Positions 51,104-57,987 of a stretch of 64,000 bases of DNA are shown here, in pieces. How positions within the stretch are numbered: the first letter of the stretch is position 1; each line of letters starts with the position of its first letter. The stretch is from positions 9,301 through 73,300 of the forward strand of contig JBAXDH010000001.1 in assembly GCA_037141055.1 (NCBI GenBank), in the 5' to 3' direction. The notes beneath the pieces were generated by a model, which saw only the letters and a program-made list of their open reading frames with translations, made no database searches and was not told where the DNA came from. Position numbers and translations under genes: made by a program. The DNA is from a bacterium. Its GTDB lineage: Bacteria > Bacteroidota > Bacteroidia > Bacteroidales > FEN-979.

Positions 51104-51111
51104 TAATTTTG
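51104..51111 (+). promoter_or_regulatory. candidate -7 box (TAATTTTG) for iorAB
   Basis: TAnnTTTG match 30 nt upstream of the 51141 ATG. Motif match only. Confidence 0.35.
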
Positions 51112-51140: not shown

Positions 51141-52748
51141 ATGCAGAAGTTATTGTTTTTGGGGGATGAGGCCATTGCACAGGCGGCCCTGGATGCCGGC
51201 TTGTCCGGAATATATGCCTATCCCGGAACTCCCTCTACTGAAATTACTGAATTTGTACAGAATTCAAAATTTGCCGCTGAACACCACGTTCATTCGTCAT
51301 GGTCCGCCAATGAAAAAACAGCCATGGAATCGGCGCTGGGAATGTCGTATGCAGGAAAGCGTACAATGGTTTGCATGAAACATGTCGGTTTGAATGTCGC
51401 TGCCGATCCTTTTATCAATGCCGCCATCACGGGGGCAAACGGAGGACTGATTGTGGTTGCGGCAGACGATCCTTCCATGCATTCATCGCAGAATGAGCAG
51501 GACTCAAGGTTTTACGGAAAGTTCGCCCTTGTGCCCATCCTGGAGCCTGTCGATCAGCAGGAAGCATACGACATGGTTCATTATGGATTTGATTTTTCGG
51601 AAAAATATAAAGTGCCCGTCATGATGCGCATCACCACAAGGATGGCACATTCACGCTCGGGAGTTACCAGGAGGCCTGAAGTCAGGAAGCAGAATGAATT
51701 GAAAATGCCTTCCGACCTGCGCCAGTTTGTTCTCCTGCCCGCCATCGCCAGAAAGCGATACAGGGGACTCCTGTCGGAGCAGGAAAAATTTGTCGCGGAG
51801 TCGGAATCATCACCCTTTAACACATATATCGACGGCCCCGACAAATCGATGGGGATCATTGTCTGCGGCATTGCATACAACTACCTGCTTGAAAATTTCC
51901 CCGATCGCATTGTGCCGAATCCTGTGCTGAAAATCGGGCAGTATCCCCTGCCGTATTCCCTGGTGGAAAAAATGGCCGATGAATGCGACGAAATCCTGGT
52001 AATCGAAGACGGATATCCCGTTGTGGAAGAGCAGCTGAAAGGCTTACTCGGACGCGGGCTGAAAGTGAAAGGCCGGCTCGACGGGACCCTGCCGCGCGAC
52101 GGCGAACTCAACCCCAACCTGATTGCTGTTGCATTGGGCAAGCCTGATACCTACGGCATCCCGGTGCCAGAGTTGGTTGTCGTACGACCTCCTTCACTGT
52201 GCAGCGGTTGTCCGCACATTGATTCCTATTATGCATTGAGTGAAACACTCAGCAGTTTATCCAACGGGCGCGTATTTTCCGATATCGGCTGTTATACGCT
52301 TGGTGCCCTGAAACCGTACGAAGCGATTAATTCCTGCGTCGACATGGGGGCTTCCATCACCATGGCCAAAGGAGCTGCTGATGCAGGCCTGATTCCTGCA
52401 GTTGCGGTTATCGGAGATTCCACTTTTACCCATTCTGGCATGACGGGTTTGCTGGATGCCATCAATGACAAGTCGCCCATTACGATCATGATCCTTGACA
52501 ATGGTACCACCGCCATGACCGGCGGACAGGATTCCCCCGCGTACGGAAAAATAGAAGATATCTGCAAAGGCCTGGGAGTTGAGGAAGCGCACATCCGTAT
52601 TCTGAAACCGTTGAAAAAATACCATGATGAAAATGTTGCCGTCATGAAAGAGGAACTGGCGTATCCAGGCGTCTCCGTCATCATCCCCCGCCGCGAATGT
52701 ATCGTAGCCATTGACAAGCGCGTTCGCGACAAATTCAAGAACAAGTAA
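51141..52748 (+). CDS. iorA: indolepyruvate (arylpyruvate):ferredoxin oxidoreductase alpha subunit, TPP-dependent
   Basis: LLFLGDEAIAQAALDAG......YPGTPSTEI, the Cys block PPSLCSGCPH and the TPP motif GDSTF.HSG....LDA. Confidence 0.8.
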   Translation: MQKLLFLGDEAIAQAALDAGLSGIYAYPGTPSTEITEFVQNSKFAAEHHVHSSWSANEKTAMESALGMSYAGKRTMVCMKHVGLNVAADPFINAAITGANGGLIVVAADDPSMHSSQNEQDSRFYGKFALVPILEPVDQQEAYDMVHYGFDFSEKYKVPVMMRITTRMAHSRSGVTRRPEVRKQNELKMPSDLRQFVLLPAIARKRYRGLLSEQEKFVAESESSPFNTYIDGPDKSMGIIVCGIAYNYLLENFPDRIVPNPVLKIGQYPLPYSLVEKMADECDEILVIEDGYPVVEEQLKGLLGRGLKVKGRLDGTLPRDGELNPNLIAVALGKPDTYGIPVPELVVVRPPSLCSGCPHIDSYYALSETLSSLSNGRVFSDIGCYTLGALKPYEAINSCVDMGASITMAKGAADAGLIPAVAVIGDSTFTHSGMTGLLDAINDKSPITIMILDNGTTAMTGGQDSPAYGKIEDICKGLGVEEAHIRILKPLKKYHDENVAVMKEELAYPGVSVIIPRRECIVAIDKRVRDKFKNK

Positions 52749-52760
52749 AACTGCCGACTG

Positions 52761-53342
52761 ATGAAAAAAGATATAATATTAGCCGGTGTAGGGGGCCAGG
52801 GAATCATTTCCATTGCTTCCATTATTGGCTTCGCCGCGCTTGAACAGGGGATGTATTTAAAACAGTCGGAGGTGCATGGAATGAGCCAGAGGGGAGGCGA
52901 TGTGATGTCAAATCTCCGGATTTCACATCATCCGATCGCATCCGACCTTATTCCTTTCGGACAGGCGGATATGATCATCTCCATTGAACCGCTGGAGTCG
53001 CTCCGCTACCTGCCCTATCTGTCGGGCGAAGGCTGGGTTATTACCAATACACGGCCGTTTAACAACATTCCCAACTATCCCGACATGGATAAGGTGATGG
53101 CTGAAATAGCAAAGGTTCCGCATCATGTAGCCCTGGATGCCGATGCAACGGCCAAAGAAGCAGGCTCGACCAAGGCAACGAATATTGTCATTTTGGGCGC
53201 CGCCTCCCCATTCCTTGGAATGGCTTACGAGACGCTGGAAAATGCAATCCGGTTTATCTTCCGGAAGAAGGGGGATAAAATCATTGAACTTAACCTGAAT
53301 GCCTTAAAGGCAGGGCGGGATTTTACAGATAAGCAGATCTAA
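52761..53342 (+). CDS. iorB: indolepyruvate oxidoreductase beta subunit (2-oxoacid:acceptor oxidoreductase gamma-type)
   Basis: [10 protein letters not shown].......A.....G...[17 protein letters not shown] and size ~190 aa. Confidence 0.8.
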
Positions 53343-53354
53343 TTTTTTTCTTCG

Positions 53355-53362
53355 TACCTTTG
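53355..53362 (+). promoter_or_regulatory. candidate internal -7 box (TACCTTTG) ahead of the alpha-oxoamine synthase gene
   Basis: TAnnTTTG match 31 nt upstream of the 53393 ATG, inside the 50-nt iorB-spt gap. Motif match only. Confidence 0.3.
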
Positions 53363-53392
53363 AACGCTATTATTTTACAGAAAGATAAACCA

Positions 53393-54583
53393 ATGAGGAT
53401 TTTACAACGCAAATGCTCCCATTTTACCGAACCGCAGAAAGTTGAAAAAATGGGAATTTACCCATATTTCAGAATGATTGAATCAGACCAGGATACTGTG
53501 GTAACCATGAATGGCAGGAAAGTGCTGATGTTCGGCTCGAACAGCTACCTGGGCCTGACCAACCATCCGAAAATCAAGGAAGCAGCCATCAAGGCGACGG
53601 AAAAGTACGGTACCGGCTGTGCCGGATCACGATTCCTCAACGGAACGCTTGATATTCACGTCGAACTTGAACATAAACTGGCCGAATTTGTCGGAAAACC
53701 GTCTGCCCTGGTTTACAGTACCGGTTTCCAGGTGAATCTGGGTGTGATACCCACGGTGACCGGCCGAAACGATTATATCCTCATCGACGAACTCGACCAT
53801 GCATCGATCATTGAAGCAACCCGGTTGTCGTTTGCCAAAGTGCTGAAATATCGTCACAACGACATGCACTCACTGGAAAATGTTTTGAAAAGATGCGAGG
53901 CCAACAGGATTAAACTGATTGTTGTTGACGGGGTTTTCAGCATGGACGGTGATATAGCAAGGCTTCCGGACATCGTGAAGCTGGCTGAGAAATATGAAGC
54001 AACGGTGATGGTCGATGATGCACATTCCATTGGCGTGCTTGGCAAACATGGTGCAGGAACTGCCAACCATTTCGGCCTGACGGATAAAGTCGACCTCATC
54101 ATGGGCACCTTCTCGAAATCACTTGCCGCCCTGGGCGGTTTCATTGCCAGCGATTTTGAAACGATCAATTATATCAAACATAATTCACGTACCCTCATTT
54201 TCAGTGCTTCCGCCACGCCTGCCTCGGCTGCAGCAGTGCTCATGGCACTTGAAATTATCAAAAGCGAACCCGAGCGAATTGAAAATCTGTGGAAGGTAAC
54301 CCATTATGCCATCGATAATTTCAGAAAACTCGGCTTTGATATCGGGCATACGGTAACGCCAATTATACCTCTTTATATCCGCGACAATCTTAAAACACTC
54401 AGCATCACGAAGTTGCTGCTTGATGAAGGAATATTTGTAAACCCCGTGGTTGCACCGGCCGTTAGTAAAGACGATACGCTGATTCGCTTTTCCCTGATGG
54501 CAACTCATACAATAGAGCAGGTAGATATTGCACTGGAGAAATTTGAGAAACTCGGGAAGAAGCTTCAAATTATCTCAAAATAA
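53393..54583 (+). CDS. alpha-oxoamine synthase (serine palmitoyltransferase / 8-amino-7-oxononanoate synthase family)
   Basis: [44 protein letters not shown] and PLP-lysine block GTFSKSLA. Its size and layout are like those of Bacteroidota Spt. Confidence 0.85.
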
Positions 54584-54588
54584 ACCTG

Positions 54589-55722
54589 ATGACGAAAACC
54601 GATCCGATTGAATTAAAGCAAGTAGGAACGAAAAAGGAGTTAAAGCGATTCATCGCATTTCAGAACCAGCTTTACAAAGGAAATAAATTCTGGTGTCCGC
54701 CCATGAGGCTGGATGAACTCAACACACTGAGCAGGGATAAAAACCCTGCTTTTGATTTTTGTGAGGGTGAATACTGGATCGCTTATCGCGGGAAGGAGAT
54801 GGTTGGCCGTATTGCCGGCATCATCAACCATAAAGGCAACGAACGCTGGAATGAGAAACTGGTGCGGTTTGGATGGATCGACTTCATCGACGACCTTGAA
54901 GTTTCGAGAACACTCATAGAAAAGGTCGTTGAATGGGGGCGCTCCAAAGGAATGACCGGCATACATGGTCCGCTGGGGTTCTCTGATATGGACAACGAAG
55001 GAATGCTTATAAAGGGTTTCGAAGAAACCGCCACCCTGGCTTCGATCTACAATTTTCCATATTACGTGGAGCACATGGAAAAATTAGGATTTGAAAAGGC
55101 CGCCGACTGGGTGCAATACGAATTCGATATTCCACCATCCATCCCCGACAAGGTCGAGAGGCTGTCCGTTCTGGTGCAGGAGAAATATAAATTGCGGATA
55201 ATCAAAGCGAAAAAGTCGAAAGAATTACTTCCGTACGCTCCCAAGATGTTTAAAACACTGAATGCTGCCTTCAGTGAATTGTATGGCTATACTGCCCTGA
55301 CCCAGAGGCAGATGGACATGTATGTTAAGGCCTATTTCGGATTTATCCGTCCTGAGTTTGTCACTTTTGTGGTAGATGAGCAGGATGATGTTGTCGGGTT
55401 TGGTGTTTCGATGCCCTCCCTGACAAAAGCCCTTCAGAAATGCGACGGAAAATTGTTCCCGTTCGGATTTCTTTACATTCTCAGGGCAATCAAAAAGAAC
55501 GACGTCATCGACATGTACCTGAATGGTGTTCGTCCCGATTATCATTCCAAAGGAGTAAACGCGCTCTATTACAATGAAATGCACAGGGCCTATATCAAAG
55601 CTGGCATAAAAAAAGCGATTACCAACCCGCAGCTTGAAGACAATGCCAAGGCCCTGACGATCTGGAAGAATTTCAACGGAAGGCAGCATCTGACCAGGCG
55701 GTGCTGGATTAAGCATTTTTAG
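54589..55722 (+). CDS. GNAT-fold acyl-CoA N-acyltransferase-like protein, paralogue 1
   Basis: 377 aa. FQNQLYKGNKFWCPPMR, GRIAGIIN, VRFGWIDFIDD, GIHGPLGFSDMD, LFPFGF and GVRPDY..KGV. I recognise this as a Bacteroidota family usually labelled GNAT, but the assignment is by memory of the motif pattern only. Confidence 0.55.
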   Translation: MTKTDPIELKQVGTKKELKRFIAFQNQLYKGNKFWCPPMRLDELNTLSRDKNPAFDFCEGEYWIAYRGKEMVGRIAGIINHKGNERWNEKLVRFGWIDFIDDLEVSRTLIEKVVEWGRSKGMTGIHGPLGFSDMDNEGMLIKGFEETATLASIYNFPYYVEHMEKLGFEKAADWVQYEFDIPPSIPDKVERLSVLVQEKYKLRIIKAKKSKELLPYAPKMFKTLNAAFSELYGYTALTQRQMDMYVKAYFGFIRPEFVTFVVDEQDDVVGFGVSMPSLTKALQKCDGKLFPFGFLYILRAIKKNDVIDMYLNGVRPDYHSKGVNALYYNEMHRAYIKAGIKKAITNPQLEDNAKALTIWKNFNGRQHLTRRCWIKHF

Positions 55723-55810
55723 GGACCCTAACCCCCTGACCCCTTCCCCCGCAAGGGAAGGGGAAACAAGTCCCTCCCTTGTTGGGGAGGGATTCAGGGC
55801 AGGGTAACAA
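55723..55810. repeat. GC-rich multi-hairpin intergenic element (two 8-9-bp hairpins inside an imperfect outer stem)
   Basis: Hairpin 1 is CCCCTTCCC-ccgcaa-GGGAAGGGG (55740-55763). Hairpin 2 is TCCCTCCC-ttgttg-GGGAGGGA (55771-55792). The flanks ACCCTAACCCCCTGA and TCAGGGCAGGGT are partly complementary. Confidence 0.7.
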
Positions 55811-55819
55811 AATGAAGAT

Positions 55820-56824
55820 ATGAAAAACGTTTTAATCACCGGCGCCAGTGGGTTCATTGGCAGTTTTTTAGTCGAAGAGGGACTGAAGCTGGATTACCAG
55901 GTGTATGCCGGAATCCGGAAGTCAAGTTCACGCGAATACTTGCAGGACCCGCGAATAAAATTCCTGGAATTCGATTTTTCCACCAAGCAGAAGGTTCTGG
56001 AAACACTTGAACAATGCAAGGCAAACAACCTGCGGTTTGAGTACATCGTACACAATGCCGGTCTCACAAAGGCTCAGAAAAAGGAAGATTTCTACAATGT
56101 GAATTGCCGGAATACGATCCATTTCATTGAGGCACTGACTGAATCCGGAATGGTGCCCGAAAAATTTATTTTTGTCAGCAGCCTTGCCGCTTACGGCCCG
56201 GGAAATCCGGACACCGGTGAACCTGTCCGGTTAGCTGATGAACCAAAACCCATCGAACTTTACGGCAAAAGCAAGCTTGATGCCGAACGCTATATCACCT
56301 CCCTCAGCGAATTTCCGTGGCTGATTGTAAGGCCAACCGGTGTTTACGGGCCTAAGGAAAAAGATTATTTCATCTTCTTCCAGACCATCAACCGCGGACT
56401 GGAGCCTTATATCGGCTTCCGGAAGCAGGTGCTTACTTTTATTTATGTGCGCGACCTGGTCAGGGTGATCTTCCTGGCGATGAAATCACCCCATGTACGC
56501 AAAGGATGGTTTGTTTCCGACGGAAAGGAATACCCGTCGGAATTGTTTGCCGAAATCACCAAAAAAGTGCTGGGGAAAAAGACCTTCCGGTTTACAGTAC
56601 CGCTGTTTATTGTGAAAACCATTGCAGTTGCCGGAGAAAATATTGCGGGTTTGTGGGGGGCCATTCCCACCCTGAACACGGATAAATATAATGTTTTAAA
56701 GAGTACCAACTGGAGATGTGAAGTGGAACCGCTGCAAAACGACCTGGGATTTAAAGCAGAATACGATCTCGAAAAAGGTGTGCAGGAGGCCATCGCTTGG
56801 TATCAAAATGAACATTGGCTTTAA
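55820..56824 (+). CDS. NAD-dependent epimerase/dehydratase-family SDR (candidate 3-keto reductase)
   Basis: N-terminal ITGASGFIGSFL Rossmann motif and catalytic YGKSK (YxxxK). Extended-SDR size of 334 aa. Confidence 0.85.
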   Translation: MKNVLITGASGFIGSFLVEEGLKLDYQVYAGIRKSSSREYLQDPRIKFLEFDFSTKQKVLETLEQCKANNLRFEYIVHNAGLTKAQKKEDFYNVNCRNTIHFIEALTESGMVPEKFIFVSSLAAYGPGNPDTGEPVRLADEPKPIELYGKSKLDAERYITSLSEFPWLIVRPTGVYGPKEKDYFIFFQTINRGLEPYIGFRKQVLTFIYVRDLVRVIFLAMKSPHVRKGWFVSDGKEYPSELFAEITKKVLGKKTFRFTVPLFIVKTIAVAGENIAGLWGAIPTLNTDKYNVLKSTNWRCEVEPLQNDLGFKAEYDLEKGVQEAIAWYQNEHWL

Positions 56825-56825
56825 A

Positions 56826-57950
56826 ATGGCTGAAATCAGAATCGTAAAAGTTTCCACACGCAAGGACCTGCGTAAATTTGTTGACTTTCCTTTCCAATTG
56901 TATAAAGGCAACAAGTTCTGGGTTCCGCCGTTGCGGTTTGATGAGATCAATACCCTTCGGAAGGATAAAAACCCTTCTTTCAGTTATTGTGAAGCTGAAT
57001 ATTGGCTGGCCTATCGTGATAACAAGGTGGCCGGTCGCATCGCCGGGATAATCAACCACCGGGAATCTGAAAGGTGGAACACACTGATGGTAAGGTTCGG
57101 ATGGATCGATTTTATCGACGATCCCGGCGTTTCGAAAATCCTCATTGAAGCGGTCACAGAGTGGGGCAGGGGAAAAGGGATGAACGCTCTCCATGGCCCC
57201 CTCGGCTTTACCGACATGGATCCTGAAGGAATGCTGGCAGAAGGATTTGACCAGATATCCAGCCTCTCGGCGATCTATAATTTTCCCTACTACAACGATC
57301 ACATGCTGCGTTTAGGCATGAGGAAAGCTACGGACTGGGTTCAGTTTGAGATTAAAGTTCCGGAAAAAATTCCAGACAAGGTAGAACGCATGACCAGGAT
57401 CGTTCTTCAAAAATATGACCTGCACCTCCTTAAACCGAAAAATTCGAAAGAGATCAGGCCATATGCAAAGAAGATGTTCATAATGTACAATGAAGCATTT
57501 AACGATTTGTACGGTTTTACCCCGCTCACAAGCGAGCAGATGGAATATTATACAAAGCAGTATTTTGGGTTTATCAGGCCTGAGTTCGTGTCGATGATCG
57601 TCGATTCCAGGGATGATGTGGTAGGATTCGGAATTACAACGCCCAGCCTTTCCATTGCCCTGCAGAAAGCCAATGGCAGGCTTTTCCCTTTTGGATTTAT
57701 ACACCTCCTGAAAGCGATGCGCAAAAATGACACAGGCCACATGTATCTCATCGGTGTGAGGCCCGATTACCAGGGGAAGGGAATCCTTGCGCTGATATAT
57801 CATGAGCTGACAAAGGCTTATATCGACGCCGGCATCAAATTAACCCGCACCCATCCGCAACTGGAGGATAACCTGAAGGCTGTTTCCATCTGGAAAAACT
57901 ATGACAGCAGGGTGAATATCAGGCGAAGATGCTATATTGCTGATATTTAA
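56826..57950 (+). CDS. GNAT-fold acyl-CoA N-acyltransferase-like protein, paralogue 2
   Basis: 374 aa from the ATG at 56826, 1 nt after the SDR stop. It is colinear with 54589-55722 along the whole length, and by eye well over half of the positions are identical (FQLYKGNKFWVPPLR, GRIAGIINH, VRFGWIDFIDD, LHGPLGFTDMD, LFPFGF, GVRPDYQGKG). Confidence 0.55.
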   Translation: MAEIRIVKVSTRKDLRKFVDFPFQLYKGNKFWVPPLRFDEINTLRKDKNPSFSYCEAEYWLAYRDNKVAGRIAGIINHRESERWNTLMVRFGWIDFIDDPGVSKILIEAVTEWGRGKGMNALHGPLGFTDMDPEGMLAEGFDQISSLSAIYNFPYYNDHMLRLGMRKATDWVQFEIKVPEKIPDKVERMTRIVLQKYDLHLLKPKNSKEIRPYAKKMFIMYNEAFNDLYGFTPLTSEQMEYYTKQYFGFIRPEFVSMIVDSRDDVVGFGITTPSLSIALQKANGRLFPFGFIHLLKAMRKNDTGHMYLIGVRPDYQGKGILALIYHELTKAYIDAGIKLTRTHPQLEDNLKAVSIWKNYDSRVNIRRRCYIADI

Positions 57951-57953
57951 GCA

Positions 57954-57987
57954 TAAAAAAAAGGCTGCGTTTCGGCAGCCTTTTTTT
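57954..57987. terminator. bidirectional rho-independent terminator between convergent lipid and SusD genes
   Basis: aaaaaaaaGGCTGCgtttcgGCAGCCttttttt: a GC stem flanked by A8 and T7 runs. Confidence 0.65.

Follow-up and report, generated by a model that had tools for sequence, protein, structure and literature searches.

Genes for a 2-oxoacid oxidoreductase in a Bacteroidales genome (GTDB FEN-979) are followed, on the same strand, by genes for an AONS-family condensing enzyme and for an SDR flanked by two GNAT-like proteins, an arrangement that raises two questions: which lipid do the downstream genes make, and does the oxidoreductase furnish its acyl chains? An earlier note on the window (the whole stretch analyzed, 64,000 nucleotides of contig JBAXDH010000001.1) had suggested a ceramide- or sulfonolipid-type pathway with a dedicated acyl-CoA supply. 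All six genes are present where that note had placed them in the open reading frame list, all on the plus strand, and Pfam and NCBIfam confirm their families. We consider it very likely that the genes at positions 53393 to 57950 make up a single operon that encodes the bacterial pathway to ceramide, with its own promoter and a terminator at its end, and that iorAB encodes the cell's single housekeeping 2-oxoacid oxidoreductase, which lies upstream by chance in this genus.

A serine-type condensing enzyme

The amino acid that is condensed, which the earlier note had left unsettled, is indicated to be serine by both similarity scores and active-site motifs. The 396-aa product of spt (53393..54583, plus strand) scores 684.5 bits against the NCBIfam equivalog for Bacteroidota Spt (NF047600, SerpalmtaseCFB; cutoff of 640). 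Placed by score against Spt, CapB/SulA, BioF, and Kbl, it is nearest to SPT, with 516 bits over residues 5 to 393 for Sphingobacterium multivorum SPT (PDB accession number 3a2b; also 8guh), versus 316 bits for Kbl/BioF-type enzymes and about 236 bits for cysteate acyltransferase (CFAT; 7u7h and 28eh). The Sphingobacterium enzyme, although from a different order than the window's organism, has all of the serine-type active-site motifs in common with the spt product, including FSAS. The hallmarks of CFAT, FGY and a Lys (AKS) (PMC13692747, PMC9304779), are absent from the spt product, whereas the CFAT of the same genome, encoded on another contig (G000:C3:33414-34628), carries NFGY, GTFAKA, and YAKS. 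The SPT-leaning scores and serine-type motifs together speak strongly against a CFAT-type condensing enzyme in the cluster. Judged by its sequence, the enzyme is of the serine type, i.e., a predicted serine palmitoyltransferase.

Tandem-GNAT N-acyltransferases and an extended SDR

Both GNAT-like genes encode members of the bCerS family. Paralogue 1, a putative ceramide synthase of 377 aa with tandem GNAT domains (54589..55722, plus strand), and paralogue 2, of 374 aa (56826..57950, plus strand; an alternative GTG start, yielding a 410-aa form, would overlap the SDR gene), share 60% identity from end to end and fall into sister clades in the tree. Against the product of the Caulobacter vibrioides bCerS gene, which was located via the published primers EK1199 and EK1200, paralogue 1 aligns with 26% identity (E value of 1e-31; residues 12 to 377 versus 15 to 384), and paralogue 2 aligns over its full length, also at an E value of 1e-31. 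A match to Pfam PF00583 lies in the C-terminal half of the GNAT-like protein, and the AlphaFold model of paralogue 1 (pLDDT of 94.5) matches the tandem-GNAT structures 5kf1, 7q3a, 2wpw, and MshD with E values of 1e-10 to 1e-14. The proposed kinship of these proteins with bCerS thus holds along their entire length and in their fold, and all six invariant residues of the family are kept in both copies.

Orthology is less simple. When the Caulobacter genome is searched with the in-cluster paralogues, bCerS is the only match; in the reverse search, bCerS is matched best by a third paralogue, located elsewhere in the genome and unlinked to the operon (E value of 1.7e-33 versus about 6e-27 for the in-cluster copies), and the in-cluster copies are not its reciprocal best matches. 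On sequence grounds, they are co-orthologues or paralogues within the bCerS family, and the tree assigns them to a Bacteroidota-specific clade (clade A). Because members of clade A in other lineages adjoin CFAT, not Spt, the assignment of the paralogues to the Spt-derived long-chain base is tentative.

Between the two lies the gene for a CerR-type extended SDR of 334 aa (55820..56824, plus strand), a putative 3-keto-(dihydro)ceramide reductase that matches PF01370 (E value of 7e-30) and contains a GASGFIGS motif and, at residue 148, YGKSK. The Caulobacter CerR gene, marked by primer EK1158, is the best match of this SDR in the Caulobacter genome, and the SDR is in turn the best match of CerR (E value of 1.7e-15 versus 3.6e-9 for the next), which upholds the suggested CerR parallel, although identity is only 24% and a reciprocal best match at that level is weak on its own. 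Caulobacter CerR is reported to be periplasmic (PMC11087976). Its Rossmann motif begins at residue 12; that of the window's SDR begins at residue 7, too close to the N terminus for a signal peptide to precede it.

Operon structure and proposed pathway

The lipid genes are closely packed: paralogue 1 starts 5 nt past the spt stop codon, and the ATG of paralogue 2 follows the SDR stop codon by 1 base. Into the spacer between paralogue 1 and the SDR gene, which is 5 to 342 nt long in other species of the genus, is inserted a dispersed, GC-rich double-hairpin repeat (55732..55799) with at least 18 more copies in the genome at 85 to 93% identity. The run is closed by a predicted bidirectional intrinsic terminator at about 57954 to 57987 (57954..57987, no strand assigned), read from the sequence as an A-run, a GGCTGC/GCAGCC stem, and a T-run, and shared with a convergent SusD gene.

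Upstream, 50 nt separate iorB from spt. This gap holds a predicted TAnnTTTG promoter box (TACCTTTG; 53355..53362, plus strand) 30 nt before the spt ATG, and a pattern scan places another Bacteroidota-type -7 box (TAATTTTG; 51104..51111, plus strand) 30 nt upstream of iorA. TAnnTTTG is a known promoter consensus in Bacteroidota, and from it a promoter function is predicted for the box. The earlier note had flagged the box in the gap as a caution, and its presence proves to be conserved: of 20 species in the genus, 18 carry a perfect motif, and the remaining gap sequence is variable (the plus-strand background, by pattern scan, is 30 motifs within 64 kb). A search of the iorB-spt gap revealed no hairpin resembling a terminator, so read-through from iorAB into the lipid genes may occur.

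These analyses establish to which family each enzyme belongs, that the active site is of the serine type, how the operon is laid out, and that the neighborhood recurs in other lineages (see below); we infer the chemistry, which acyl chains are used, and how labor is divided between the paralogues. Spt would join L-serine and a long-chain acyl thioester in a condensation that yields 3-ketosphinganine; a bCerS-family tandem-GNAT enzyme, of which there are two paralogues, would N-acylate the amine with an acyl-CoA or acyl-ACP donor; and the CerR-type extended SDR, with NAD(P)H, would reduce the 3-keto group to give dihydroceramide. That acylation would precede reduction is argued by analogy with Caulobacter and with published Bacteroides fragilis knockouts, in which loss of cerS leads to accumulation of 3-KDS and loss of cerR to accumulation of keto-dihydroceramide (bioRxiv 10.1101/2023.05.23.541633).

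Why the N-acyltransferase gene is duplicated is a separate matter. One reading, which we entertain with considerable doubt, is that each of the two paralogues has its own long-chain base or acyl donor, such that one acylates the Spt product and the other acylates ketocapnine/capnine or uses a different (e.g., 3-hydroxy) acyl chain. It is consistent with the lineage-specific nature of the duplication, with the invariant residues and purifying selection common to both copies, with the linkage of clade A, which is to Spt or to CFAT depending on the lineage, and with the presence of CFAT in 30 of the 31 genomes of the genus. However, the third paralogue belongs to clade C, co-occurs with CFAT, and could be the one that serves the sulfonolipid branch, and paralogue 2 was not found downstream of the SDR gene in four loci of the genus whose contigs continue past that gene (one of these species carries it on another contig). 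Paralogue 2 is also the faster-evolving copy, with a dN twice that of paralogue 1, and is dispensable in some species.

Conservation of the neighborhood and the place of iorAB

Genes for Spt, a bCerS-type protein, and a CerR-type SDR are neighbors in at least 10 other Bacteroidota families, in the orders Spt-GNAT-SDR and Spt-SDR-GNAT or with the SDR gene divergent from Spt-GNAT. Among the order- and class-level samples, a CerR-type SDR occurs in 12 of 15 Spt-positive genomes (13 when a tblastn match in L054 is counted) and in only 1 of about 57 Spt-negative ones. The association is not universal: some genomes with clade A and SDR genes (G031) yielded no Spt at an E value of ≤1e-100, and in an order-level relative (G299), the GNAT and SDR genes are unlinked from Spt. 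Within the genus, dN/dS is about 0.03 to 0.07 for all six genes, values that are rough because dS is saturated.

The upstream pair behaves differently. The product of iorA (51141..52748, plus strand), a predicted alpha subunit of indolepyruvate:ferredoxin oxidoreductase with 535 aa, has TIGR03336 (IOR_alpha) as its best family match, at 543 bits, below the cutoff of 651; it covers positions 2 to 539 of the 595-position model, leaving the C-terminal 55 or so unmatched, and a motif scan detected no CxxCxxCxxxC in it. The product of iorB (beta subunit, 193 aa; 52761..53342, plus strand) exceeds the cutoff of the NF005324 equivalog (300.6 versus 222 bits). The synteny of iorAB with the lipid genes that the earlier note anticipated in relatives is complete within the genus, where all 19 scorable species (those whose contigs reach far enough upstream of spt) have the pair next to spt in the same orientation, but ends there: none of 21 loci outside the genus has iorAB within about 8 to 10 kb of Spt, including that of a member of the same order (G334) with the same Spt-GNAT-SDR cluster. 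Since a divergent TonB receptor gene and the gene next to it are equally syntenic across the genus, the adjacency of iorAB and spt reflects shared ancestry.

We therefore find no support for iorAB as a dedicated acyl-CoA supply, given that the adjacency is confined to the genus, that iorAB is single-copy in the genome, and that a conserved promoter box precedes spt; iorAB is probably a neighbor and not part of the lipid pathway. That the two are nonetheless coupled, with keto acids derived from amino acids being converted to arylacetyl- or branched acyl-CoA for use by Spt or the N-acyltransferases in unusual ceramides, is very unlikely: it would accord with the short gap lacking a terminator, with an adjacency kept among species that are diverged (dS of about 2), and with the shaping of Bacteroides sphingolipid chains by branched-chain amino-acid metabolism, but the arylacetyl-CoAs that IOR produces are, to our knowledge, not known substrates of Spt or bCerS.

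Relationship to known ceramide and sulfonolipid pathways

The three-enzyme parallel with Caulobacter proposed in the earlier note was borne out for Spt, bCerS, and CerR alike by direct tests. The Caulobacter crescentus genes (Spt, CCNA_01220; bCerS, CCNA_01212; CerR, CCNA_01222) (Stankeviciute et al. 2022; Olea-Ozuna et al. 2021; PMC11087976) encode the same three enzyme families and are likewise clustered, and the bCerS homology and CerR reciprocal match described above link the two systems, although identities are low (24 to 26%). The Caulobacter genes are spread over about 10 genes, whereas those of the window are contiguous in one operon, which has no AcpR or acyl-ACP synthetase gene, contains a duplicated bCerS gene, and encodes an Spt of the Bacteroidota acyl-CoA type. 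Compared by description, B. fragilis, of the same phylum, has the same three activities (Spt; CerS, BF9343_4218; CerR, BF9343_4240), but its genes are dispersed (bioRxiv 10.1101/2023.05.23.541633), as they also are in G299.

Sulfonolipid synthesis proceeds by parallel chemistry (AONS condensation, keto reduction, and N-acylation) through cysteate synthase, CFAT/SulA/CapB, and the ketocapnine reductase CapC/KCR (PMC9304779, PMC11211663, PMC13692747), and no N-acyltransferase is named in the sulfonolipid-pathway literature that we found. That the cluster itself makes a capnine-type sulfonolipid and not a ceramide is hardly credible, despite the organism's CFAT gene and the clade A relatives that adjoin CFAT in 10 of 20 genomes of one family (f8) and lie near it in three genomes of another (f29), as the condensing enzyme is of the serine type, CFAT is on a separate contig, and the reductase is an extended SDR and not of the CapC type (about 240 aa, a classical-SDR size inferred from the match span in PMC12927429). 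Of the two lipid types first suggested for the cluster, ceramide thus stands and sulfonolipid does not. The organism, which also carries CFAT and the third bCerS-family paralogue outside the cluster, probably has a second, parallel route that leads to sulfonolipids.

Two further observations concern the distribution of the bCerS family: clade A adjoins CFAT in Flavobacteriaceae-like genomes, and clade C was detected in 32 of 61 CFAT-positive genomes versus 1 of 13 CFAT-negative ones. Paralogues that track CFAT may be the sulfonolipid N-acyltransferase.

The pathway in the window is thus a known one whose genes are packaged compactly and in a manner specific to this lineage, and the gains in annotation are incremental because that pathway is already known. 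It nevertheless provides a testable four-gene ceramide cassette from an uncultured Bacteroidota genus, shows all three core genes side by side in an order whose studied producers have them dispersed, and allows the serine and cysteate branches to be told apart within one genome. A by-product of greater use is that clades A and C offer specific candidates for the N-acyltransferase that acts on capnine, a step missing from the described pathway. We raise as a speculation, one that we think considerably more apt to fail than to hold, that tandem-GNAT proteins of the bCerS family generally carry out the N-acylation of long-chain amino-lipid bases in Bacteroidota, the last step of sulfonolipid synthesis included, with the duplicated in-cluster paralogues of this genus serving Spt- and CFAT-derived bases or different donors; if so, the operon would be a center of N-acylation shared by two classes of lipid and not a plain ceramide operon.

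Gene layout and the position of iorAB

Six genes, all on the forward strand, occupy 51141-57950 of the window (C1:9301-73300), the source of which is a 4.09-Mb metagenome-assembled genome that is 94% complete. The run begins with iorA (535 amino acids [aa]) and iorB (193 aa), which are followed by a 50-nt gap and an alpha-oxoamine synthase gene (spt; ATG at 53393; 396 aa). The first of two genes of the bCerS (Caulobacter ceramide synthase) family, GNAT1 (paralogue 1; 377 aa), starts 5 nt after spt, a 97-nt spacer separates it from an extended SDR (334 aa), and the second, GNAT2 (paralogue 2; 374 aa), comes 1 nt after the SDR. The run is closed by a terminator of A-run, stem, and T-run (~57954-57987), beyond which lies a convergent SusD/SusC pair, and a divergent TonB-dependent receptor gene lies upstream of the block. 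Within the GNAT1-SDR spacer is a 68-nt GC-rich double-hairpin element (55732-55799). It belongs to a family of dispersed repeats, of which the genome has at least 18 more copies at 85 to 93% identity. In sister species, this spacer measures 5 to 342 nt.

The earlier note proposed that iorAB supplies acyl-CoA to the lipid genes, with the caution that a box in the gap might let the latter be transcribed independently. In a block comparison of 20 species-level genomes fetched from the genus, the order receptor (reverse strand), iorA, iorB, spt, GNAT1, SDR, and, where present, GNAT2 is kept wherever the contig reaches. A true coupling would be favored by the adjacency of iorB and spt at all 19 genus loci whose contig permits scoring and by the lack of any terminator found after iorB, which makes some read-through into spt possible. 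Beyond the genus, however, the synteny does not hold: the 21 Spt loci covered there, which represent 14 families, all lack a nearby iorAB. Also against coupling are the presence of iorAB as one copy in the genome and the box itself, TACCTTTG at 53355-53362, which is as the caution had it and is perfect in 18 of the 20 genus species, with drifting bases on its flanks. A promoter-type box of iorA's own lies at 51104, and a sigma-70 promoter scan, which is uninformative for Bacteroidota, returned 8 sites versus 9.9 expected. We read iorAB as a mere neighbor of the lipid genes and regard a genuine coupling as very improbable. The IorA protein (51141-52748; 535 aa) scores under the TIGR03336 equivalog cutoff, ends at position 539 of that 595-position model, and has no CxxCxxCxxxC ferredoxin motif.

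Amino acid specificity of the condensing enzyme

The window's alpha-oxoamine synthase scores 684.5 bits against NF047600, the NCBIfam equivalog for Bacteroidota Spt (serine palmitoyltransferase; cutoff, 640), and falls under every cutoff of the NCBIfam BioF, Kbl, and proteobacterial Spt models. Among solved structures, it scores 516 bits to the Sphingobacterium multivorum SPT, 316 bits to the best Kbl/BioF-type chain, 250 bits to the Sphingomonas SPT, and ~236 bits to each of two cysteate fatty acyltransferases (CFATs; 7u7h and 28eh). In an alignment, its FSAS and other active-site motifs are common to other Spt sequences, whereas the CFAT ortholog of the same genome, encoded outside the window (C3:33414-34628), instead carries NFGY, GTFAKA, and YAKS, the features by which the CFAT structure papers explain cysteate binding; this ortholog is 58% identical to another CFAT that itself matches 28eh at 730 bits. 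On these scores and motifs, the in-cluster enzyme is predicted to be a serine palmitoyltransferase that uses serine, a choice of amino acid previously left undecided, and the cysteate enzyme would be the one encoded elsewhere. The same structure scores and serine-type motifs reject the cluster as a sulfonolipid route.

At five loci in other families (L057, L058, L098, L059, and L060, from f30, f29, f22, f19, and f25, respectively), an Spt-like synthase is flanked by bCerS- and CerR-like genes. These enzymes reach 465 to 507 bits against NF047600, and because this is below 640, automatic annotation would miss the Spt name despite the sphingolipid context.

Homologues of the Caulobacter ceramide synthase and reductase

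No NCBIfam model matches the two ~375-aa proteins, which are 60% identical to each other, and Pfam yields a weak C-terminal GNAT match and nothing else. The founding bCerS was located through its published cloning primers (PMC11087976, supplement): primer EK1199 matched Caulobacter vibrioides DSM 9893 and the reverse primer set the 3' end, giving a gene of 384 aa (L063:2150-3304). Residues 12-377 of paralogue 1 align to it at 26% identity (E = 1e-31), and it is the sole match of paralogue 1 across the Caulobacter genome; paralogue 2 matches it at the same E value. The anticipated relationship to bCerS is borne out by sequence comparison: both proteins are bCerS homologues. Searching the PDB by sequence with the GNAT protein returned only noise, and a fold search was required. 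An AlphaFold2 model built from a 46-sequence family alignment (pLDDT, 94.5; pTM, 0.91) matched tandem-GNAT enzymes at E values of 1e-10 to 1e-14, including glucosamine N-acetyltransferase 5kf1, MAB_4324, the clavulanate tandem GNAT, and mycothiol synthase; from these matches, each protein is predicted to consist of two fused GNAT domains with an amine acceptor.

Primer EK1158 similarly marks the Caulobacter ceramide reductase, CerR (L064:1477-2430), whose 3' end fits the reverse primer except for one extra A. CerR is the best Caulobacter match of the window SDR (24% identity over the full length; E = 1e-16), and in the reverse search, the window SDR is the top match of CerR in its genome (E = 1.7e-15; next, 3.6e-9). 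The SDR, which has GASGFIGS and YGKSK motifs, is CerR-like.

Duplication of the ceramide synthase homologue

A maximum-likelihood tree was built from 80 bCerS-family members, with Caulobacter bCerS as the root; both window paralogues fall in clade A (53 rows), which is strongly supported. Several basal lineages show the strongest similarity to Caulobacter bCerS, and their genes usually sit immediately downstream of an Spt-like gene. The two window paralogues form sister clades within a 12-row group (support, 99), a placement that puts the duplication within the window's lineage. Paralogue 2 is the faster evolving (dN, 0.17 versus 0.08); dN/dS is rough, as dS is ~2 and saturated. At four genus loci, the contig extends past the SDR, but paralogue 2 was not found there; one of these species has it on another contig.

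Clade C (13 rows) includes the genome's third paralogue (C1:84887-86080; L041:4888-6081; 397 aa), which lies ~11.6 kb past the window end and matches Caulobacter bCerS better than any other gene of the genome does. Where clade A or clade C genes are unlinked, none of their neighbors recurred in three or more loci.

Distribution across the phylum

Among 300 genomes sampled from the phylum, 233 have Spt-like genes and 186 have the SDR, and members of the GNAT family are found in almost all (287/301 genomes). The SDR closely tracks Spt: in the order and class samples, it is present in 12 of 15 Spt-positive genomes (13 with a tblastn match in L054), and only one Spt-negative genome, G031, carries it. 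This genome, of the same order (L106 and C44:8499-9455), carries a GNAT of clade A (48% identity) together with a CerR-like SDR (47%), with neither Spt (E ≤ 1e-100) nor CFAT (E ≤ 1e-110) found. Among fetched loci, the order Spt-GNAT-SDR is seen in G063, G259, G227, G183, and G334 and is implied by coordinates in G195 and G267; G199 and G215 have Spt-SDR-GNAT, and in families f30, f25, and f29, Spt is followed by GNAT, with a divergent SDR. GNAT and SDR genes are unlinked from Spt in the other order-level relatives covered (G299, G231, and G127), and in G328, GNAT adjoins the SDR with Spt absent from the pair. The unlinked Spt in these relatives agrees with the reported unclustered state of the three genes in known Bacteroidota producers (PMC11334938).

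Some bCerS homologues lie near CFAT instead. A clade A gene is tail-to-tail with CFAT in 10 of 20 genomes of f8, a Flavobacteriaceae-like family (e.g., L091:7931-10367); in three genomes of f29, the two genes are less than 7 kb apart. No capnine N-acyltransferase was found named in the sulfonolipid literature searched, and the CFAT-adjacent f8 genes are candidates for a possible sulfonolipid N-acyltransferase. In the order and class samples, clade C was found in 32/61 CFAT-positive versus 1/13 CFAT-negative genomes; of 31 genomes of the genus, 30 have CFAT and 28 have clade C. In one genome of the same class as the window's (L051; G107:C3:198500-218400), Spt and CFAT are convergent and ~1.5 kb apart, with no GNAT or SDR gene seen near the pair.

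For the window itself, the cluster probably represents a known pathway whose genes are compactly arranged in a way specific to this lineage, the synthase being duplicated.
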